Origin: Atractiella rhizophila
Taxonomy: Eukaryota
DNA length: 63,505 bases
Assembly: GCA_021432655.1 (NCBI GenBank)
Contig: MU271246.1
Span: forward strand, 62,001-125,505
Direction: 5' to 3'
The stretch's first letter is position 1. Each line of letters begins with the position of its first letter. Shown here one piece after another: positions 8,703 through 44,700 of this stretch. The notes under the pieces are model-generated. The model was not told the DNA's origin and ran no database searches. It worked only from the letters and a program-made list of their open reading frames with translations. The position numbers were made by a program, and so were the translations under genes.

Positions 8703-9029
8703 ACTTCGACGAGTAAAGCGCAAGCTGGCTAGAAACGCTAACATGTAAACACCGGGAAAGTCCATCTTATGACCACAGTAAAACTTTGTCATTTCGCACA
8801 CTCAAAATTGTAATTTTGTACTTGCTACGGAAAGAGATGTTGCTGTTGAACGGTAAATCTCTGCTGCACCAGTATGCTACCTCTTCAAGGCAGTCCATTC
8901 GCAATTTGAACTTCAAGAATTCCAGCTGACAAGCCACTGAACCCAGATTAGACCAGCAAATACGGCGCACGACCAAACAAATCCTACTTAGATCGAGCAG
9001 GGCCAACGTCCAGAGTTGAACAACAGGGC

Positions 9030-9926
9030 ATGGCGACACAAGAGAAGGACAGTGCACTCATGGCCATCGGGGCGCAATGTTCGCACCATTCCTGCTTACA
9101 AATTGACTTCCTTCCACTGCCCTGTCCCAACTGCAGAGCTCCCTTCTGTTCCTCGCACTTTCGACCAGACACCCATTCCTGCTCCGCCCCTCCACCTGTT
9201 CCAGCAATCTCAGAATCGACCAGCAGCAACGTTGTAGGTGGAGGGACTTATAAGGAGCTTGTGCCCTCAAGAGATAGACATGAAGTGGCCCAAGCTGCGA
9301 GAGAAGCTGCGAAGGAAGAGAGGAACAGAGAGGTCGCTGAGAGAGTGCACCTGATGAGAGAAAAGTTGGGGTTGAAAGATAAAGAAAAGCAGGAAAAGGC
9401 TGGTAAGAAAGACAGTGATACAGTCCGCCTGATCAAGCTTCGTCAGCGAGCGAAAGCAGCTTCAAAGAATGAGAAAGAGAAGGATGTGAAGCGAAATGAG
9501 AAGCTGTTCCTTTCCGTCGTTTGGATTGGAGAGATAACAGGTATGGGACTGAAGGAATCAGAGAAGAAGGAGCTGTGGTTTCACAAGGTACGTTCCTGAA
9601 TTTAGTGGCAAAGCCAAATGCTGAAGGTCCCATATAGAATACAACTGTTGGGAAGGCTCTCGACCTCATGGCTGATCAGTTCCAGCTCTCAAACGTGAAC
9701 AACCGCGTCACTGATCCATCAAAGGTGACTGACTAATCATCCCATTGTTTATATTTTGCCTCTAAGCCAAAGAGCGTAGATTTTACACGTCGCGGTTCCA
9801 ACAATGGATTCAATCAAGATTCCTTCCCATTCAGAACAACTAGATAAATTTCTCAAGGATGGTGAGGAGCTGTGGCTCATACGAGGGGATGTCAGCCATT
9901 TTTGCGGCCTGGAAAGCACCTCGTAA
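9030..9926 (+). CDS. AN1-type zinc finger protein with probable C-terminal ubiquitin-like domain (ZFAND1/Cuz1-like)
   Basis: IGAQCSHHSCLQIDFLPLPCPNCRAPFCSSHFRPDTHSC zinc finger. Downstream exons TTVGKALDLMA and FLKDGEELWLIRG. Confidence 0.85.
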
Positions 9927-11887: not shown

Positions 11888-13378
11888 ATGACCTCAAGCA
11901 ACCCTGTCAGACAATTAGGCAAGAATGGTCCACGCAGTAAGCCCTTCCAGCCAATAGATCATGGCGTTGACGCATTTGCTGGTGCTGGGCTAGTCCCCGC
12001 GCTTGGATTTGGTGCTATGGGTCTCTCTGCCTTCTATGGTCAATTGAAACCCGAGGAGGAAAGCAAAGCGCTATTGAAGAAGGTATCGCCGCCGTCTTAT
12101 CCTTATTGTTCGTCCACAAGACACTGTACTGATGATGGAATGATAGGTCCTCGATCTTGGAGTGCAGCACATCGATACTGCTATCCTGTATTATTTCTTG
12201 CCTCCGCCTGCAGTGATTGTCGCTAACAAATGGCGATCGAATTAGTTATGGTGCTGGAAAGAACGAATCATTGATCGGGACGGTGCTGAGTGACCCTGAA
12301 TACCGCAAGAAGTGCTTCATCGCTACAAAGGTTTGTGCGTTCCTCCATTCACTTTCCCCGGCATATGAACGCGAGCACTTCAGTTCGGAGCCATGTATGA
12401 TCCAGAAGGAAAAATGTATTTGTCGGGGAAACCTGAGGTCGTGAGGCAATGGTGCGAAGATTCACTCAAGCGACTGCAAGTGGATTCTATCGACCTTTAC
12501 TATCAACATCGAGTGGACCGAAACATCCCGATTGAGGAAACTTGGAAGGAATTGGCAGCGCTGCAAAAGGAAGGAAAGATCAAGCACCTTGGAATCAGCG
12601 AGGCGACAGCTGATGAGATCAGGAAGGCGCACGCTGTTGCTCCTATATCTGCTCTCCAAATCGAATTCTCATTGTGGACGCCTGATATCAGGCTCGTCTC
12701 TTACCACTTTGCAAATGCCACGCTGATAGAGATGCTCATAGGACAAATGGCATCTTAGACACCTGCCGCGAACTGGGGATCGCGATCGTCGCTTACTCTC
12801 CTCTAGGCAGAGGTATGTACACACTTCTGCTTGTGTTACGGCTCTGACTTGGAGGAAAAGGATTCCTCACTGGCGCATACAAGCCTGAGGATTTCAAACA
12901 AGGCGATTTCAGATCCATTAACCCTCGTTTTCAGAAAGAGGCGTTCGACGAGGTAACCTCTGGTATTGCCATTTGACAGAGGGAATGAGCTCACGTTGGC
13001 TTGCAGAACATGAAACTAGTTAATGCAGTCAAAGAGATTGCGACGAAGAAGAATTGTTCGGCAGGTCAACTGGCGCTCGCTTGGGTTCTCGCGCAAGGAG
13101 ACGAGTAAGCGGTTCCTCCATATTTGCATCAGCAGGAATCTGACAGATCGCTGTAGCTTCTTCGCCATCCCTGGAACTAAAAATGAAAAATATCTCCTTG
13201 AGAACGTCGGCTCGACGGAGGTCAAGCTGTCTGCTGAAGACCTCAAAGAAATCGACGCCATTGTGGAGAAAATCAAAGTCGTGGGAATGAGGTTTGTTAT
13301 TGTAACTTTTTCACTGGGTTCTGCTTATGCTTTCCTAGGTACCCAGCTCCCTCCAATGTCGTCGGTACCGCCTTTTGA
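11888..13378 (+). CDS. Aldo-keto reductase (AKR13/YakC-like), copy 1
   Basis: [56 protein letters not shown] and IPGTK motifs over about 10 exons. Confidence 0.95.
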
Positions 13379-14987: not shown

Positions 14988-16483
14988 ATGTCGAAGAATT
15001 CCCTTAGACAATTAGGCAAAAATGGCCCCTTCAGTGTGCTCTCCTTCTTAGTCTTAATGAATGCTAGCAGCTTCGTTGATATCGGCTTGCGATGATCTAG
15101 TCCCAGCCCTTGGATACGGCGCTATGGGGCTCTCAGCTTTCTATCAAGGTTCCCTGTCAGACGAAGAGAGCAGGAGGCTCTTGAAAAAGGCATAGTGGAG
15201 CCTCTTACTTGTTGCGGCACCGAATTGATCGCCAATCCTGATAGGTTCTCGATTTGGGAATTCAACATGTTGACACAGCAGCTCTGTGCGTTTTCTCCAT
15301 ATAAAGTTCAACCCAGTGATAAAACCTGTTCAGGTATGGGAATGGAAAGAACGAGGTCTTAATTGGAAGCGTTTTGCAAGATCCAGAGTATAGGAAAAAG
15401 TGCTTTATCGCGACGAAGGTGCTTTCTCCTCGTGAATAAGCAGTTCAAGATCTCATGAAGAATTGCACAGTTTGGCTCGGTGTTTGATAAGGATGGGAAG
15501 CTCCATATTTCAGGCAAACCCGTAGTAGTTAGACAATCATGCGAAGCCTCTTTGGCAAGGCTACAAGTGGATACCATCGACTTATACTATCAATCGCGTG
15601 TAGGTCATCCCTCACATCCATCTACCGTCTCTCTGACATAAATTGGAGGTCGACCGTACTATCAACATCGAAGAAACATGGGCAGAACTCGCAAAACTAC
15701 AGAAGGAAGGAAAGATTAAGCATCTTGGAATATGCGAGGCGACACCCGAGGAGATCAGGAAGGCGCATTCCATCGCACCTATCCAAGTCTGCGAGATTGA
15801 ATTCTCGTTATGGACACCGGACATTAGGACAAACGGGATATTGGACACTTGTCGCGAGTTAGGCATTGCGATTGTCGCATACTCTCCACTAGGAAGAGGT
15901 ACGCATGACATCTCCTTTCTGTCGTTCATGGGAGATTGACGGTCAACAGGATTCCTCACTGGTGCATATAAGCCAGAGGATTTTGGGAAGGACGATATCA
16001 GGGCTGTCAGTCCTCGTTTCCGGAAAGAAGCGTTCGAAGAGGTATCTCATTTTCTTCCCCGTTTTGCATTGTGCTCAAACACTATCAAAGAATATGAAAC
16101 TGGTAGACGCTGTGCAGAAAGTGGCAGACAGGAAACTGTGCACNNNNNNNNNNNNNNNNNNNNNNNNNNNNNNNNNNNNNNNNNNNNNNNNNNNNNNNNN
16201 NNNNNNNNNNNNNNNNNNNNNNNNNNNNNNNNNNNNNNNNNNNNNNNNNNNNNNNNNNNNNNNNNNNNNNNNNNNNNNNNNNNNNNNNNNNNNNNNNNNN
16301 NNNNNNNNNNNNNNNNNNNNNNNNNNNNNNNNNNNNNNNNNNNNNNNNNNNNNNNNNNNNNNNNNNNNNNNNNNNNNNNNNNNCAAGGTGGTGGGAATGA
16401 GGTGTGTCCAGCTTTTGAACGCAGCAGAAAACTGATTTAAAAGGTATCCTGCGCCGTCTAATGCAATGGGAACGGCTTTTTGA
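14988..16483 (+). CDS. Aldo-keto reductase, copy 2 (close paralog of copy 1; spans an N gap)
   Basis: Same motifs and exon layout as 11888-13378 ([49 protein letters not shown]). Confidence 0.9.
16144..16383. other. Assembly gap (240 N)
   Basis: Run of N inside AKR copy 2. Its size is similar to the equivalent segment of copy 1. Confidence 0.99.
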
Positions 16484-23203: not shown

Positions 23204-23662
23204 AAAACGGCTATCCGAAGTCGGTTGCACTTTCTCTGCTACCGGATGTGTTCCATCAGATGGATTATGAAGCGGAACGGAGGGGAAGAGGAAAGACGTA
23301 CAACGTCACGTGATTTACGGTAAGAATACAGCTCAGGTCTCGCTGCAAAATTCAGAGGCGTGCTTCTGTCCAAAGATGGGCATATGGAAATGTGCGGTCA
23401 GTCTCCTGGAGACTGCATAAACAACAGGTCGAAATATCGGGAGGATTGGGTTTACACACTGACATGCCTGCCTCCCCTTAACCAATGCCAATCGTCGTGT
23501 TTCCTCCTCCAAATATTAACCATCTCTTCTTAAACAAGTCATCGGCCTTCTTCGTCAGGCCCGCCAACCCACGATCTGTTTGATATCTTGCCCAGATTCC
23601 CTCTAGAATCATGCTCTGATCAGTCTGGCCCATACACCAGAAAAATCATCCTTACGTTCAGC

Positions 23663-24081
23663 CTAATTTGATATCCTCTGCTCTATATGGTTATCGAAGG
23701 GGCTGCACAGAGTTTGTAATTGTCTGAAGCACTTTACTTTCCCGTTTTGATTTCCCACTTCAATATAGAGTGGTTTTGCCTCCTCGAACGCCTTCTTTGC
23801 ATCCTCATTCTGGCCACATTGAAAATTAATATCCCCTATTTCATAGATGCAGTCGACTTCATCCAGTCGATTCCCCACTGCAATAGAGTGCCTTTGCCTC
23901 CTCTAACGCTCTCAGTGCATCCTTGTTCCGGCCGCATTGAAAATGAACTTTCCCAATGCTGCGAACACAGAGGGCTTGATCCTGTTGAGATCCCACTTCC
24001 ATGTAGAGCACCTTTGCCTCTTCGAAAGCCTTCAGAGCATCCTCATTCCGCCCACATTGAAAATCAATATCCCCAATGCTG
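23663..24081 (-). pseudogene. 3' end of a TPR-repeat NLR gene (about three 40-aa repeats plus C-terminus), with a 2-nt frameshift
   Basis: SIGDIDFQCGRNEDALKAFEEAKVLYMEVG repeats, same type as in ORF 26876-29929. Spacing between units is 120 then 118 nt, with the frameshift at about 23883. Confidence 0.75.
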
Positions 24082-24106
24082 NNNNNNNNNNNNNNNNNNN
24101 NNNNNN
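24082..24106. other. Assembly gap (25 N)
   Basis: Exactly 25 N. Confidence 0.99.
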
Positions 24107-26550
24107 GTAAAAGCTACACCCGCCTTACTCCTACGAGACTTCCGAAAGCTTCTCCGTTTCCACGAGATGTACCTTCACCCTAGAGCTGTCCCAGTTCGAC
24201 TGACACAAACACCGTAACCCCTATAAGTAAAAGCTACACCCGCCTTACTCCTACGAGACTTCCGAAAGCTTCTCCGTTTCCACGAGATGTACCTTCACCC
24301 TATAGCTGTCCCAGTTCGGCTGACACAAGTGCCGTAACCCCTATAACTAAAAGCTATACCCGCCTTACTCCTACGAGACTTCCGAAAGCTTCTCCGTTTC
24401 CACGAGATGTACCTTCACCCTATAGCTGTCCCAGTTCGGCTGACACAAGTGCCGTAACCCCTATAACTAAAAGCTATACCCGCCTTACTCCTACGAGACT
24501 TCCGAAAGCTTCTCCGTTTCCACGAGATGTACCTTCACCCTATAGCTGTCCCAGTTCGGTAGACACAAGTGCCGTAACCCCTATAAGTAAAAGCTACACC
24601 CGCCTTACTCCTACGAGACTTCCGAAAGCTTCTCCGTTTCCACGAGAAGTACCTTCACCCTAGAGCTGTCCCAGTTCGGCTGACACAAGTGCCGTAACCC
24701 CTATAACTAAAAAGCTATACCCGCCTTACTCCTACGAGACTTCCGAAAGCTTCTCCGTTTCCACGAGATGTACCTTCACCCTATAGCTGTCCCAGTTCGG
24801 TAGACACAAGTGCCGTAACCCCTATAAGTAAAAGCTACACCCGCCTTACTCCTACGAGACTTCCGAAAGCTTCTCCGTTTCCACGAGAAGTACCTTCACC
24901 CTAGAGCTGTCCCAGTTCGGCTGACACAAGTGCCGTAACCCCTATAACTAAAAGCTATACCCGCCTTACTCCTACGAGACTTCCGAAAGCTTCTCCGTTT
25001 CCACGAGATGTACCTTCACCCTATAGCTGTCCCAGTTCGGTAGACACAAGTGCCGTAACCCCTATAAGTAAAAGCTACACCCGCCTTACTCCTACGAGAC
25101 TTCCGAAAGCTTCTCCGTTTCCACGAGAAGTACCTTCACCCTAGAGCTGCCCAGTTCGGCTGACACAAGCCTCGTAACCCCTATAACTAAAAGTTACACC
25201 CGCCTTACTCCTACGAGACTTCCGAAAGCTTCTCCGTTTCCACGAGAAGTACCTTCACCCTAGAGCTGTCCCAGTTCGGTTGACACAAGCGTCGTAACCC
25301 CTATAAGTAAAAGTTACACCCGCCTTACTCCTACGAGACTTCCGAAAGCTTCTCCGTTTCCACGAGATGTACCTTCACCCTAGAGCTGTCCCAGTTCGAC
25401 TGACACAAACCCGTAACCCCTATAAGTAAAAGTTACACCCGCCTTACTCCTACGAGACTTCCGAAAGCTTCTCCGTTTCCACGAGATGTACCTTCACCCT
25501 ATAGCTGTCCCAGTTCGGTGACACAAGTGCCGTAACCCCTATAAGTAAAAGCTACACCCGCCTTACTCCTACGAGACTTCCGAAAGCTTCTCCGTTTCCA
25601 CGAGAAGTACCTTCACCCTAGAGCTGTCCCAGTTCGGCTGACACAAGCCTCGTAACCCCTATAACTAAAAGTTACACCCGCCTTACTCCTACGAGACTTC
25701 CGAAAGCTTCTCCGTTTCCACGAGAAGTACCTTCACCCTAGAGCTGTCCCAGTTCGGTTGACACAAGCCTCGTAACCCCTATAACTAAAAGTTACACCCG
25801 CCTTACTCCTACGAGACTTCCGAAAGCTTCTCCGTTTCCACGAGATGTACCTTCACCCTAGAGCTGTCCCAGTTCGGGCTGACACAAGCCTCGTAACCCC
25901 TATAACTAAAAGTTACACCCGCCTTACTCCTACGAGACTTCCGAAAGCTTCTCCGTTTCCACGAGATGTACCTTCACCCTAGAGCTGTCCCAGTTCGACT
26001 GACACAACCCGTAACCCCTATAAGTAAAAGTTACACCCGCCTTACTCCTACGAGACTTCCGAAAAGCTTCTCCGTTTCCACGAGAAGTACCTTCACCCTA
26101 GAGCTGTCCCAGTTCGGCTGACACAAGTGCCGTAACCCTATAACTAAAAGCTACACCCCGCCTTACACCTACGAGACTTCCGAAAACTTCTCCGTTTCCA
26201 CGAGATGTACCTTCACCCTATAGCTGTCCCAGTTCGGTAGACACAAGTGTCGTAACCCTTCCAAGTAAAAGTTACACCGGCCTTGTTCCTACGTGACTTC
26301 CGAAAGCTTCTCCGTTTCCACGAGATGTACCTTCACCCTAGAGCTGTCCCAGTTCGATTGACACAAGCGTCGTAACCCCTATAAGTAAAAGCTACACCGG
26401 TCTTACTCCTACGTTTCTTCCGCAAGCTCCTCCGTTTTGGTGAGATATAACTTCACCCTTTAGTTTTGCCCTTTCATTTCACGAAGTCTGTTAATGTTTG
26501 AGACACGTCGGGGAAGCTATTGGTATATCTCGTCTCCTATAGTTTAATCC
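24107..26550. repeat. Tandem array of about 20 x 120-bp units; mirror image (reverse, uncomplemented) of the NLR TPR coding repeats
   Basis: The base-by-base complement read left to right translates as HFRCGRNEDALKAFEEAKVLYMEVGSRQGQADCVCGIGDI. Units start at about 24107, 24227, 24347 ... 26386. Confidence 0.95.
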
Positions 26551-27206
26551 GACTTGCATTCCTACTAAAAAGACCACATACCCGGTCTGACTAGTCTCGT
26601 ACTAAGATCTCCCTTAGACCCGTTCTATAGTTTGTCTAGTCGGTTGTACACCTGTCACTAAAATCATCTTGACAGTTGTTGTAACTTACACGTATTACCT
26701 CCTAAATACTTATGTCGATGGATGATGATAAGGAAGCGCTGACTTGACAAGGTATGGTACCCGGTGTCTCGACCCTGATCCTACCCTCCTCTAAGTCGAA
26801 GCTACGCTGATAGTTTGACAACTGTCGCACGATGCACGACTTTCTACGCTTGAGCGAACAAACTACACTTGGGACCTAGTAGACGGAAGGAGAACAATCT
26901 TCCTTAGTGTCCTCCCCCTCAACGCTGTTTTCATCCTTAACCCCACCACGGAGAGACAGGTCAGGGCGGAAGAAAGTACGACTCTCAAGACGAACGGTCG
27001 AACTGATGATGATAAGGAAGCACTGCCTTGACAAGGTAGTCAGTTTAAACCGACCCCTTGTCTCAATCCCAGTCCCGGTCCCACTCAGGGCAGTCGGATC
27101 AACTCCGAGACCGACTGTCTTGATTGGACTGCCCTGCCTTGCGTGGTAACTCAGGACAGTCGAGTCTGAGTTGCCGGTTTTACCAAGCGTTCCGGCCCTA
27201 CTCGGG

Positions 27207-29929
27207 CGAAAATCAATATCCCCAATGCTGCGAACACAGTTGGCTTGACCCTGTCGATCTCCCACTTCCATGTAGAGCACCTTTGCATCTTCAAACGCCT
27301 TCACAGCATCCTCGTTCTTGCCATGGTCGTAAAAACAATTGCCGAGGGACTCTGTCAGTGAACGTCTTAGTCTTAACCATTCAGACTCTCTGCAACCTGG
27401 ATACAGGGGCATTCCCAACCCTGTGTTCACGGCATGTGTCGCCTGTTGTAACAGCGAAGTTGAGAGCCGATGTTTCATGCGTACAAACTCTGATGTGTTC
27501 TCCAAATGCCACAGCATGGGTAAAGGGTTTGACAGGCATAATAAGCTCCTTAGCAAGACATGTTCAAGGTTTGGGTATTGTTCACGGAATTGAAACAGTG
27601 CGTGTTGATCCTGGTGGATCTCGAACTGTTCAATATTTGACTCGGCTTTCTGCATGAGATGGTTTCCAAGAGGTAGGAGCGACCAAGCCACGGGCATCGA
27701 AAACGGTAATTTGGAGCCGGCGACAAGTTCGTTGAGGTATTCACGAATAGGAGCAAGCATACGGAGAGTACCTTTGATGTTATCGGCAAGTCCAATCTTT
27801 AAAATCACAGCAATGACTTTGAAGATATCCTGAGATTCATAAGACCTGGAAATGAGTGCTGACAGGTCATGGTGGGCTAGACCGTCTGGCACCCAAGACA
27901 GTAGTGCGAGTGCAAAGACAGCACGCTCCCCCTGCTTCTTGAGAGCGGGAGAATGGAGGGAGAACGATAGAGATGTTTTGAGCGTGATGGTATCTTCACT
28001 GTCTTCGTTCCAGAAAACAAGTGTCTTTTTCTCCTTCCACTCCTCTACCAATTCTTCGAGTGTCATAGTTGAATCCTCCTGCGCACGGAGAGCGAACAGC
28101 TTGATGGATAGAGCGTGGAAGTCTAGCTGGTCAACTAGCTGTTGGACCACCAGTAGCGAGGACTCCTCGTTGCTTCCATATGACTCCTCGAAGAGTGCGA
28201 GCACGCCGTCTTTCGGCAGACCGCCAACTGAGATCTTGATGAACTTCACAGGCTCTTTCCCTTTCACGCCCAACGCTTCCACTTTATCCCCACGGTGGAC
28301 CACGACGAGCACCGACCCAACTGAGTTGTTCGAGAGGAGTGTTCGGAAGAAGTGTTGTTTTTTGTTTTCGTCGGCACGCATGGGAGTCTCAAAGTTATCC
28401 AAAACGAGAAGGCATTTTCGACTTCTAAAGTAATCTGCCACGACCTCTAACGATGTTTTGTCAGACTTAGTCAGTGTGAAGATGTCGTTGCAGATGTGGT
28501 CAGAAAGCCTGGCGAAGGTGTCAAAATTGTCGCAGCGAACCCAGAAGCGGAGATCTTCTCCAATGCCCTGTGTCAGATCTGTGAATGACTGCCTGATCTC
28601 TTCGCAGTGCACCGCGTCGAGTGCAACGGTGGATTTTCCGTTTCCAGCTCCACCCACAATCGCAACGTGGCGTCCTTCAAGTATAGCTTTTCTGGCGCGT
28701 TGGATCTCATCTGTGCGGCCAAAGCAAGAGCCTGGAGGCGGTAAAGGTAACCGCCGACGAACTGCAATCCGTTCACTGCACACTACAAGGACGTCAGTGT
28801 GGTATTTACACGAGAGGTAAGAGAACATACCCTGCACGAGACATTGAGCAGCATCACGCGCTTCGTGACCCATTACTTGCATATAGGCTTTTGTCCGACC
28901 CACGACGTCCTTTGTTCGCTCCCACTCCTCCCACTTGATGCCTCCCATCGTGTGGACTGAAAAGCGGTGATAGCGATGGCCCAGGCCGCGATCCTGCATC
29001 TTCATCTTCAACTGATCTGCTACCTGGGAACAATCTTCGACGATTGCCTTCACAGCGAGTTCAATCTCGCATTGGGTCGGACCCCAATTAACAGCCGGAG
29101 CGATCCCAGACCCCAGAGAGACAAGACAGGCGACTTCGCTTCCTTGTCCCCATATGTGCTTAGCCTCGTCAATCGCTATTGCCGCTGGGTTATTGTTCCC
29201 GATGGTGACATATTCCGTATTGTCGATGACGATAGGAGGAAGGAAGGGACGGGGAGAGGAAGTCGCTCTTGCTGCTTCCAACACCGTACATCGTGCAGCA
29301 GCATTTGGCGCATCGTACGTGCGCAATTTTGTTGAAACAACTGCGTTTGATTCGTACGTTGACACAACAAAAGTTCTACATCTATCCCCAATTGCCACAT
29401 CCTTCATAGGAAGTCGAGAGGACGAGATAGACAGTGGAGCGTGTCGAGTAATGATCTCCTGGAGGACGGCTTCGAGCGTCTTTGCGGAGCATGCATAGTC
29501 TTCATTCGAAAGTGGAGCTCCCCCGGAAAAGACGTCCTGCACGATCTCTTCGTACGCGCTGATGGATTGTCGAACGGTCATTCCCAACCTTCCGAGCATG
29601 AGGGCGATCCACCCTCCCGTGGAAGTGCCACAGATGAGATCGAAAACGTCGCACGGCCGGACTTCTTCTCCTTCGTGGACTTTGAGGAGGTTGCCAACCT
29701 CGAGCATGACGACTTCGAGCATGTAAAGCGTGGAGAAGGTACAGACGCCGCCGTTGTCGATAGCGAGGATTCGGAGTCCTTGTTCGTTCGTCTTCTTGAC
29801 ATTGTCAGGGACTTTGAAAATCTTGATGGTTTGAACTTGGGATCGGCTGGAGGACGAGAAAGGTGTGGGTAACAGATCTGGAGGCAACAGGAGATGCGGT
29901 ACGCGATAGGAAGCGAAATTGTGAGCCAA
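27207..29929 (-). CDS. NLR-like protein: patatin-like phospholipase domain, STAND (NB-ARC-like) NTPase and TPR repeats. True start probably upstream (about 30143); the TPR array continues in the mirrored segment
   Basis: LRILAIDNGGV, FDLICGTSTGG (patatin), GGAGNGKST Walker A, LLVLDNFE Walker B, first TPR GKNEDAVKAFEDAKVLYMEVGDRQGQANCVRSIGDI. Same architecture as Neurospora PLP-1. Confidence 0.9.
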
Positions 29930-31016
29930 AAATTGTCGGGTTGGTGCTCAGGAAACGGATAGGTTGAGAGTACAGCTGCAATACTGAAAGATTTTGTACT
30001 CCGATCCCTTCATTAGGACGAGGAACTTCTCGCGGATCGGCGCTGAATGCGTGGTCGTCGTCAGACAAATTCCCAGGGTCTTCATGGTTGCTGGGATTTG
30101 TTGAAGAAGGCTTAGGCGTCTTTCCGAAGGCTGAGGCGTCCATCGCTTAGAGCACGAGATGAAAACGATGACGATTGACCCAGAACTCCTTGTTGAACGT
30201 GAGACGAAACTGAGAGAATGCGTGTCAGATCTGGACGAGAGCTACCAGGAGGGAGGGTGGTCAAAGAATACTTGAACTGGCTGTGAAGAAGAGGAAGAAG
30301 AAACAAGGAATACGGAATACAGTACCGCTGCGTTCCGATCCAATGATACGTACGTACGAATGCATGAAAGAAAATCCAGATGAATGTGACGATGTGAGGA
30401 TAAGAAGGGAGGGAAGCTTAGCGCAACTTAATCAATTTGTCAACTCGCAAGACGGAGGAATGAATGCTAGGAAAAAGAAGGATGAACCATCCAGCACTGA
30501 AGATCTCTTGTCTAACGGATCGGAAAACGGTCCTAAGAAGAAGTGGCGTTGTGGCTAAGGTGAAGTTATGCTTCCGCTTGAGCCAATGGAGATATGGAGT
30601 ATGAAGGCTGCACAATATCGAATTGACGAGGGAGAACATAAAATTCATCCCCCCAACTCCAACTCATCCCTCATCTCGGTGTCGACATGCCAGGGTCGAT
30701 AAATTTAAGACTCACGGGACTCCTGAGACTCTTTCTCCGATCGTTCAGAAACGCTTGACACTCAGCAAACAAACTCGAGAACAGTCCGATATCGTGCTGT
30801 CTTTGACACTCAGCGGAAGATGCAGTGAGTGTTCGCCGATGGAAGCTCAATAAAGTTCACTGACTCTACCGCACATCCCGTCCAAGATGTGCTTATTCCC
30901 TCCGATTTCTTTCGTCTCTTCGGAGAATACCCTCAAATAAATTCTTAACAAAGAAAAGGTGCTGACGGAAGGCACAGTTCGACGCTGGGCCTGTCTGGGC
31001 TACTTCCGAGTTTGCC

Positions 31017-41700: not shown

Positions 41701-44700
41701 TCAGTACGACTGGGCCAGAACTTGCATGACCCAAGGGCTCTTTTCCAACCTAGAAGTATATCAGAAAGAGAAAGGTAACTGGTATAACGCAAAAAGACGT
41801 ACTCGCTGCTGTGTTCGACCCAGCATTGCTTTAGTGCATGCTGCTCTTGGTTTTCCTTCGATTCCCCGTCCACATCCATACCTTCGTCGATTGCCGCTCG
41901 CTTCGTAATCCAACTCTGGACAAATCGCTGGACTACAGCTATCCCGTCTGATATTTCGGCAGCTGTATAATCTGGAGCTTCTGATGGCCCTATGTTGAGA
42001 GTTAGCATAAGCAGTTAACCGACTAAATTAAGGATGAACTTACGGCCAAAATCCTCCAAGTTATCTGCTTTGCGTTTTGCTAGCTTTAGCACATCTTCTG
42101 GGAAGTTCGACAGCTGTGCTACATGAATACCGAAGCTTTGATCACTAAAGCCTATGCCCAGCTTGAGCGAGACCGCATGAAGTAAAGAGATGGACAAACC
42201 AGGCTCGACACGATACAGAAGCGTTATATCTTTGCCAGTCAGGGTGTCTTCCTTCTCTTCGACGTGGCACACAACGTGAATGTTGTCGACGTGAGAAACT
42301 TGTTCTGAGAGTTTCGTTAATTCGTGATAATGCGAGGCGAAGAGGCAGAATGCTCTGATATTTGTAGCAATGTGCCTGCACACGCAGTTGATTCCAAAGA
42401 AGCGCTGATTAGGAAGGACCACGTACTCTGAGATAGCCCAGGCTAGCCCAAATCCGTCACTTGTTGAAGTCCCCCTCCCAAGCTCATCGATGATGATGAG
42501 GGAGTTTCGTGTTGCAGACTGCAGTAATGTGAGCACGGTCAGATGGACAAGAAAAATGATGTGCCTTCAGAATTGTAGCTGTCTCTAGCATCTCGGCCAT
42601 AAAGGTCGACACACCTTTGATCTGACTGTCTCCGGCACCAACTCTCGCGAGGATGGAATCAAAGATGGGAAGTTGGGCTTCCGAACATGGGACGAAACAG
42701 CCGATTTGTGCCATGAGTACAATGACGCCAATCTATCCTCTGTTTAGCCCTGCACTTTGACTGGATGGTATACCCACCTGGCGAATATATGTGCTTTTAC
42801 CTCCCATATTTGGGCCTGTGATTATCTGAAACTCACTTTTGCCTGTCCAAACGCTGGTCAGAAAAGAAAGAAAAGGTCAACAAACATGTTTACCTCGTGT
42901 GAGCTGAACATCGTTGGGGATGAAGTCAATTCCATCCTGTACCTCCAGACAAGGATGTCGGGATTCTCTCAATATCAAATCTCCCTGTCCCATATCACAG
43001 AGAGTAGGTTTGATATAGGCAATAGGCGCAACGGCGGACCCTTCCGCAAAGCTGCGAACATACATGAGGTCATTCAGAGAAAAGGAGAAGACACACCTTG
43101 CAATGACGTCCAGATGGGCAATGACTTTGTTGAGTGCTTCCAGAGAAGGGGCGTAGGATGCTGTCAGAAAATTTCAACTCACAGTCACACAGAGGGAAGG
43201 ATATTAGACTGTACCGGCGATGGAGATGACCTGTTTAACCAGACCACTCTGAGCGCGCTGGAACTGTTTTTGATAGTCTTTGAGGTTCTCGTTATACTGC
43301 TTCATTTTCTTCGTGGTAAAGTAGACACCAGCTTTTTGTGTGGATAGTTCAATGTAGCCGCTCTTTCGCTGCATTCTTGGTGCTTCCTGCAATTTCAGCC
43401 TATTAACAATGATCCGAAGCCGTGTCAACAAAAGCAAACCTTGCGAGTAAGTCGACAACATCTACCGTACAGCGAATGCTCTTCGAAATGAAGAGTCTTG
43501 CCGTCCATATCCAATCCGAGGTCGTCTGCAATACTGTTCTGTTCCTCTTTGATACCCCGAGTGACTTTATCAAGTTTCCTTTTGATTTCAGTAAGGGAAG
43601 TATCGAAGTCGGCGCGCAATATGAACTGGTGGTTAGACTGACGAACCCTATCTTCAAAACATGATAAAACAATGAGTAAACACTTACAAGTTGGTCCAGG
43701 TCAACCGTGGTTTCTACCATCTCCACCAACTTTGCACACTGTCGATCCCCCTTCTTCAGGCCATCTAACCACCATTTACTGACTAGCGACCCGAGATTCT
43801 CAGCATCCTCCTCTTCCTCCAACCTCTTCAGCCCATTTTCAAGAAGTTCAATAGTCTCAGGTATTCGTAGAACAGCTTGATAGACGCGAACAACATCTTC
43901 AAGACTCGCCTGGCCTTTTTGAAACTTTTTTGCAAGTCGATGTAGGTCAGGGAGACGAGAAAGGTTGTCTTCGCGAATGGCAGTACGGAGTTCTCGGTCG
44001 TTGAAGAAAAGCTCTACAAGCTGTTGGCGTTCGACTGTACGGTGTTATTTCACAAAACTGAGAAGGGGAGGCACCCACGGATGGCTCCTTTGTCCACGAG
44101 AGGCTGTTTGAGCCATCGATTTAGCTCGCGGACACCTTGGGATGTTTTGCAATGATTCAGGAGACCAAAAAGGCTCTGATTCTTGGATTTCCCCCTTCCG
44201 GTTCCGAGGATTCCAGGCCCTTCTGGAAGGAGATTCAACGCTTTGAGCGCGGAACCATCGAGGCGCATATACTTGGAAATGTCATGGGTGATCAGAGTGT
44301 AAGTGTTGAAATTTGACTCGTCGGCCGTTAGAGAGAGGTACGAAAAGACAGCTGCAAGAGAAGGAAGGGCAACTCGCATGTCAAATTCCGCTAATTCATC
44401 AAATCAGAACAATCTGTCTCTCGGCAGAAAGATAGACATACGACGACTTGAAAGCCCCAATCGCCCTTTCAGCAAACGATTAACGTCTTTTTCCACATCC
44501 TTCTCGTTCCACTTCTTTTTGTCAAACTCGACAACAGCAATTCCACACCGTTCCAACACTCCTCGAATCTTGACCCCTTCCCAATCTCTCCGCATCAAGT
44601 CTTCTCGTTCTTCTTCTGCCTCCCGCCGGGCTCGTACTGCTTCATCTTCTTCTGCATCTATAGCGTCGTCCTCATCCTCGCCGGCTGATGACTCTCGGGC

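Follow-up and report, generated by a model that had tools for sequence, protein, structure and literature searches.

An apparently mirror-written array of tetratricopeptide repeats in the record of a patatin-type receptor gene of Atractiella rhizophila

A mirror-written block beside an assembly gap

The stretch of DNA that was analysed (the window; 63,505 nucleotides, nt) stems from Atractiella rhizophila, a basidiomycete of the Pucciniomycotina. Its minus strand carries, from about 30143 to 23663, a gene of the NOD-like receptor (NLR) type (NOD, domain for nucleotide binding and oligomerization), which combines a patatin-like domain, a NACHT-like P-loop NTPase and tetratricopeptide repeats (TPRs) and is a member of an expanded family of Atractiella type. 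The favoured reading, to which we assign a probability of about 80%, is that the array fill of this single fungal NLR family member (24107-27206) stands in mirror writing in the record, while the real DNA harbors near-identical units in tandem. The layout of the locus is presented in Table 1.

The array at 24107-26459 was detected by Tandem Repeats Finder with a period of 120 nt, 19.6 copies, 93% matches and a score of 3963, which is far beyond chance. None of the stop-to-stop open reading frames (ORFs) of the window spans it on either strand, and the only one found there is a by-product of 159 codons on the plus strand (24184-24663). Read by eye on the minus strand, the units correspond letter by letter to the reverse of a TPR-coding sequence, and when 24107-27260 is complemented by script but left unreversed, TPR units appear across all three frames, with frame shifts between them. 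The same picture emerges from tblastn searches with the paralogues P0007 and P0010. Within 24107-27206, the window as written gave no high-scoring segment pair (HSP), with 31 HSPs elsewhere; the complement-only window gave 48 in the block (best E 4e-65) and a single one elsewhere. Moreover, positions 26381-26639 agree with the plain reverse of 23573-23831 at 257 of 259 sites without any gap. An initial annotation of this DNA had treated the array as part of a reading frame of the window that could be recovered by ORF reconstruction. This view has to be abandoned, because the units decode only as a complement without reversal, which is impossible for a real strand, and the frame is even then broken in seven of the 19 intervals.

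The left edge of the block adjoins a run of 25 N. When the whole window was compared with its own mirror image, 40 hits were obtained, none of which lies outside this region, and mirror-reading ORFs of at least 130 codons outside 24107-27206 comprise only low-complexity frames; both scans miss blocks that lack a long ORF or a proper copy. The window has another assembly gap, of 240 N, at 16144-16383, and two crude scans revealed no mirror-written coding block beside it.

The 20 unit anchors of the array define 19 spacings, 12 of exactly 120 nt and seven of 118, 119 or 121 nt. The underlying indels of one or two nt sit, according to the unit alignment, at short homopolymers. Such indels are the usual error of an unpolished long-read consensus. 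PMC12222747 makes the same point on sequence error with respect to a homopolymer deletion in an NLR array of Podospora. The GC skew of -0.355 at 24001-26000, the strongest of the window, merely reflects that the repeated unit is one-sided in its composition.

Evidence for the organization of the real DNA comes from two contig runs (X1 and X2) of one sample, in which a fraction of 0.68 of the words sampled from 27207-29947 is present and whose contigs were placed on 26385-29947. The contigs of both runs stop matching the window at 27207/27208. The loose ends at 27207 (two contigs of X1, five of X2) continue on the minus strand, properly oriented, into the beginning of the TPR unit that follows, and one X1 contig links 27317 back to 27207 with nine letters in between, which equals the tandem period of 120 nt. 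In addition, the letters of the window at 27287 and 27304 are outvoted in the contigs, and the dominant letters are those of the array consensus (at 27287, X1 shows them in 16764 of 17399 depth units and X2 in 49109 of 49756). These are exactly the two positions at which the first, properly written unit departs from the array consensus in an Asp/Glu and a Val/Leu codon. Contig letters and loose ends thus match the consensus, thereby indicating that the mirror-decoded consensus unit exists in the organism, properly oriented and in abundance. The depth of X1 and X2 is 0 in all six bins of the mirror block from 26385 to 27098, and cover resumes from 27207; the argument for mirror writing is based on the loose ends and the tandem join, not on the missing cover.

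The contigs also bear on the scenario that the block is genuine DNA, i.e. a biological mirror repeat. The block does stand in the record, and its right edge lacks a run of N. However, 27207 is exactly the point at which the contigs part from the window, to proceed in proper orientation, and we know of no replication or recombination process that copies DNA reversed without complementing it. We therefore reject a biological mirror repeat, whose probability is close to nil. The simplest account would be an error of gap filling or file handling with unpolished long-read sequence, in which a fill extending from the right flank into the gap was complemented but not reversed, equivalent to a plain reverse. 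Users of this assembly should be aware that sequence next to gaps can stand backwards, which hides genes from six-frame tools and creates false "non-coding" repeats.

Several observations weigh against the favoured reading. The right edge of the block (27206/27207) carries no run of N, so that a scaffold piece in the wrong orientation is not a sufficient description of it. Its reversal in place gives no seamless join; the seven letters preceding the junction recur as letters 2-8 of the block once it is un-mirrored. The last units of the block share only 91.6% identity over 512 nt with the left flank, and its last 567 nt (26640-27206) are unmatched anywhere in the window, so that the array may belong to another gene copy. 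The search for a long array of such units among annotated proteins, conducted with the 73-residue tail of the gene against longer proteins, found none and matched only one of 911 candidates (P0056, a fragment of 160 residues). The sample behind X1 and X2 may be the source of the record itself and is in that case not independent, and two frame breaks, around 29861 and at 23884, allow a pseudogene. Within the unmatched end of the block, a direct repeat of 34 nt with 94% identity is located at 26721-26754 and 27005-27038.

The partial agreement with the left flank is best considered together with the question of the origin of the fill. The array may be real and stem from another copy of the family, either a haplotype or a paralogue, so that the record is chimeric, with head and tail from one locus and the repeats from another. 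The fill has its own C-terminus and 3' flank, the gap beside it remained open, and the paralogues are numerous: on 3.5 kb of the gene, 365 contigs of X1 and 507 of X2 align with at least 88% identity (range 88-99%), which points to a large family in the organism. In contrast, contigs run from the first unit of the gene into a unit of consensus type, hence the head also precedes such units, and these contigs are too short to give a count. The odds of a chimeric record are in our view evenly balanced. Given that the array, C-terminus and 3' flank of the fill agree only partly with the left flank, the fill probably derives from another haplotype or paralogue, which would explain why the gap could not be closed. 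Since the block is written backwards beside a gap, the number and order of its units are not to be trusted. In X1, one contig each at 28962 and 29164 runs into telomere-type CCCTAA repeats, so that telomeric repeats may truncate or cap part of the paralogous copies of this NLR.

A single continuous coding sequence is not present in the record as a consequence of the mirror block, the gap of 25 N and the two frame breaks, which is a feature of the record and not necessarily of the organism. The minus-strand ORF from 29947 to 26876 turns into nonsense just past the first TPR unit at about 27207. Upstream of the patatin domain, tblastn places the end of residue 217 of the paralogue P0005 at 29862 and the beginning of residue 219 at 29860, and loose ends of paralogue contigs were found beside this break at 29866. 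In the tail, frame -3 gives way to frame -1 in the tblastn alignment at 23884. Both breaks were recognized by comparison with the paralogues and are located in properly written sequence, as expected for a decayed pseudogene whose repeats have no present function, and the annotated paralogue P0003 likewise exhibits an out-of-frame stretch (residues 442-610). However, an open frame of 913 codons extends from the patatin domain as far as the first TPR, and both breaks could be sequencing errors. Decay of the locus appears somewhat less probable than not. The stretch of P0003 aligns to 28776-28270 in frame -2, the frame of the window being -1 at this site, and this public model seems to contain an out-of-frame segment. 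A similar odd tail terminates P0006 in the alignment of the paralogues.

Variation and structure of the repeat units

The unit statistics were obtained from the script-decoded complement-only reading with masked indels and thus describe a fill of low quality. The 19 units represent 17 distinct DNA sequences (U04 = U08, U05 = U07). From U01 to U17, 14 of the 120 columns are variable; 12 of them recur in at least two units, and the remaining two are singletons beside indels. The recurrence of 12 columns indicates that the substitutions are not read noise. The recurrent columns fall into nine codons (1, 3, 4, 21, 26, 31, 32, 35 and 36), with a synonymous change in codon 31. The unit consensus and the variable positions of the initial annotation were exactly reproduced by the script. 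The proposed high internal conservation is likewise apparent: the mean identity of the 17 units (680 residues) amounts to 95.5% for DNA and 90.4% for protein, with a protein minimum of 80%. After decoding and indel repair, the 17 units fall within the class of more than 85% identity over at least 100 residues, as it is defined in PMC4986451.

The distribution of the variants is indicative of shuffling, because all four combinations are present in 10 of the 21 pairs of two-state columns. The mean pairwise proportions of non-synonymous (pN) and synonymous (pS) differences are 0.0470 and 0.0207 (pN/pS 2.27). The predominance of non-synonymous differences noted in the initial annotation can be seen in the columns (10 non-synonymous versus two synonymous), but in relation to the available sites (93:27) it does not amount to a significant excess (Fisher P = 1.0). 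Third codon positions hold two of the 12 recurrent columns (binomial P = 0.18). Comparison by eye showed that the variable positions of the array also vary among the diverged units of the paralogues, and that unit positions such as 10-11, 13-14, 16-17, 31 and 38 are conserved among the latter. Of the proposed recombination-diversified non-self receptor in a basidiomycete, the shuffled variants and the host are retained; the written form of the array is an artefact of the assembly.

The quality of the fill raises the question whether near-identity and unit count are themselves its products, brought about by a noisy long-read consensus or by looping in the repeat, and whether the true sensor is shorter or more diverged, as in P0007 and P0010. 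Indels in seven of 19 intervals, the arrangement of the identical units in repeated two-unit blocks and the lack of a long array among the annotated proteins would fit this explanation, and such arrays are described as unreliable in assemblies in PMC12222747. On the other hand, the recurrent columns are specific and singletons are limited to two, the tandem join of 120 nt is present in a contig, and over the first unit the letters of the consensus prevail. We consider a mere product of the fill to be unlikely.

The structure of the units was approached with the paralogue P0010, which contains seven units in the same register and was folded alone as a proxy. The TPR block of the model (residues 381-638) has mean predicted local distance difference test (pLDDT) values of 80-94; its patatin part is unreliable (pLDDT below 50). 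Unit positions 7-23 form helix B with an Ala/Phe/Ala pattern, and positions 27-40 together with 1-3 form helix A. In TPR superhelices, it is helix A that lines the concave groove. The same location of helix A is stated for the TPRs of fungal NLRs in PMC4986451. Five of the eight variable residues are located in helix A, a weak enrichment (P = 0.19), and seven of eight if one flanking residue is added per side, a post hoc choice (P = 0.015). The best structural match of the TPR model is the TPR domain of LGN/Pins (3sf4_B; Z 29.8, root-mean-square deviation [rmsd] 3.5, 320 aligned residues); the kinesin light chain (6f9i_A; Z 20.2, rmsd 2.5, 232 aligned) has a lower score. With a sequence identity of 15-18%, the LGN/Pins domain represents a structural analogue only, and a common function is not implied.

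By analogy with characterized NLRs, the TPR superhelix would bind a ligand via residues of the A helices, thereby releasing an NTPase-driven oligomerization, and the N-terminal domain would then cause membrane damage or cell death. Unequal recombination that shuffles the units would create new binding surfaces. This putative receptor function is inferred from the same analogy.

Domain architecture, gene family and known receptors

The proposed gene order is an N-terminal extension, the patatin-like domain, the NACHT-like P-loop NTPase, a helical linker and a sensor of 40-residue TPRs. In the 913-residue translation of 27209-29947, Pfam recognizes the patatin domain above its cut-off (Table 1), while NACHT (26.6 bits, cut-off 26.7; residues 426-588) and nSTAND1 (26.5 bits, cut-off 27.1; residues 409-557) score just below their thresholds; NB-ARC (PF00931) has no match at E <=0.01 in this translation. 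The paralogue P0007 has a precomputed NACHT match. The properly written tail at 23862-24080 is recognized as TPR_12 (31.0 bits, cut-off 30.1). The domains of the patatin-STAND-TPR NLR that had been assigned to 24107..29929 are hence largely supported, with NACHT and nSTAND1 just under the cut-offs, and its extent has to be revised to about 30143-23663. The assigned number of about 21 units mixes 19-20 units of the mirror block with the properly written one at 27207-27339, and about three more proper units (24081-23663) are located outside that range.

The homology search retrieved 55 proteins. The ten best are all from Atractiella rhizophila with identities of 38-72%, and none of the homologues is identical, so that the window copy is absent from the public proteins found. 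These ten paralogues (P0001-P0010), which are annotated as "FabD/lysophospholipase-like" or "TPR-like", share the N-terminal extension, the patatin motif without Asp and the 40-residue TPR register with the gene of the window; the units of P0007 and P0010 are free of gaps and in the same register as the array. The annotated paralogues with TPRs contain diverged units, and none of them has a long near-identical array.

The patatin domain has retained the Ser motif GTSTGG. Proteins from other fungi (P0011, P0013, P0016, P0017 and P0021) exhibit an Asp-Gly/Ala just upstream of a conserved Asn-Asn-Pro motif; Ser and Asp of these motifs presumably form the Ser-Asp dyad of patatins. No Asp is present at this site in the window gene and in seven of the eight aligned Atractiella paralogues, which are one residue shorter there, and P0010 is ambiguous. 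For the comparison of the catalytic Asp, the window domain was also aligned to the patatin phospholipase 9kh7_A of a cyclic oligonucleotide-based antiphage signaling system (CBASS). The glycine-rich loop of the domain is altered, too. According to a review (PMC12881547), PLP-1 of Neurospora crassa requires its patatin activity, and the absence of the catalytic Asp suggests that the effector step is different here. Judged from these motifs, the effector action, if any, is probably other than ordinary Ser-Asp lipolysis.

PLP-1, HET-Z1 of Podospora and a counterpart in Botrytis have the same order of a patatin-like N-terminus, a P-loop NOD and TPRs, and a role in cell death is described for PLP-1 in the same review (PMC12881547). 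The likeness to PLP-1 noted in the initial annotation is confined to this order of domains. The NOD of the window scores as NACHT/nSTAND1 and not as NB-ARC, whereas the PLP-1-like proteins P0016 and P0021 carry PF00931, the catalytic Asp is missing, and PLP-1-like proteins of ascomycetes, for instance P0016, share no more than about 32% identity with it. A SNARE, the sec-9-type partner of PLP-1, was not detected among the 51 ORFs of at least 120 codons at 8-46 kb (no match to a SNARE family), a search that short intron-split exons would escape. On the tests made, the sequence places the window gene outside the PLP-1 group.

Fungal NLRs with high internal conservation, as portrayed in the survey by Dyrka et al. 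(PMC4986451), have the layout of effector, NOD and repeats in common with the window gene, and also units that are more than 85% identical far beyond 100 residues, with few recurrent variable positions and shuffled variants. High internal conservation is reported there for 21.2% of the NLR TPR domains. Two differences are evident from the same text: the array units are 40-residue TPRs of LGN type, whereas the modelling template of Dyrka et al. is of kinesin-light-chain type, and the window gene originates from the Pucciniomycotina, a lineage in which their survey detected no NLR. Our literature search, which did not extend to supplements, found no paper on NLRs of Atractiella. The design of an effector, a NOD and near-identical repeats is already known, and the gene of the window adds one member to it. 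The locus contributes a TPR receptor with high internal conservation from a basidiomycete lineage that is thinly covered in NLR surveys, and its family has a patatin head without the catalytic residue; the known picture of fungal NLRs remains unchanged.

Tentatively, and with slightly less than even odds, we propose a broader scenario for this root-associated member of the Pucciniomycotina. It would possess an expanded family of patatin NLRs without the lipase Asp, at least one member of which carries a long near-identical array of LGN-like 40-residue TPRs. Recombination of units would have reshuffled its helix-A residues, resulting in a fast-evolving repertoire with a non-lipolytic effector head.

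Features of the locus and neighbouring genes

Table 1. Positions of the gene parts, the mirror-written block and the adjoining gap in the window
Feature	Position	Strand	Remarks
N-terminal extension, 94 codons from ATG	29862..30143	-	frame differs from patatin ORF; tblastn: P0003 residues 1-98, P0005 residues 103-217 in frame -3
Frame break between N-terminal extension (frame -3) and patatin ORF (frame -1)	29860..29867	-	no space for an intron
Patatin-like domain	29171..29764	-	PF01734, 43.7 bits (cut-off 27.7); residues 62-259 of the 913-aa translation
P-loop STAND NTPase, NACHT-like	28184..28672	-	residues 426-588; Walker A motif GGAGNGKST read from the translation
First TPR unit, properly written	27207..27339	-	25 nt unlike the array consensus; covered by public contigs
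Mirror-written block	24107..27206	.	plain reverse of real sequence; legible only as complement without reversal
19 near-identical 40-codon TPR units and a diverged terminal unit, inside the mirror block	24107..26504	.	
Last unit of the gene with stop codon and initial 3' flank as a mirror copy, inside the block	26381..26639	.	plain reverse of 23573-23831
567 nt inside the mirror block	26640..27206	.	unmatched in the window in any orientation
Assembly gap	24082..24106	.	25 N; adjoins the mirror block on its left
Properly written tail with C-terminus and about three TPR units	23663..24081	-	frame break near 23884; TPR_12 31.0 bits (cut-off 30.1)

The fragments of neighbouring ORFs at 42018-44044 (minus strand), 12369-12755 (plus strand) and 8952-9596 (plus strand) match MutS domains III and V, an aldo/keto reductase and zf-AN1, respectively. 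These neighbours are ordinary housekeeping genes, and the NLR gene is thus located outside any NLR cluster within this window.

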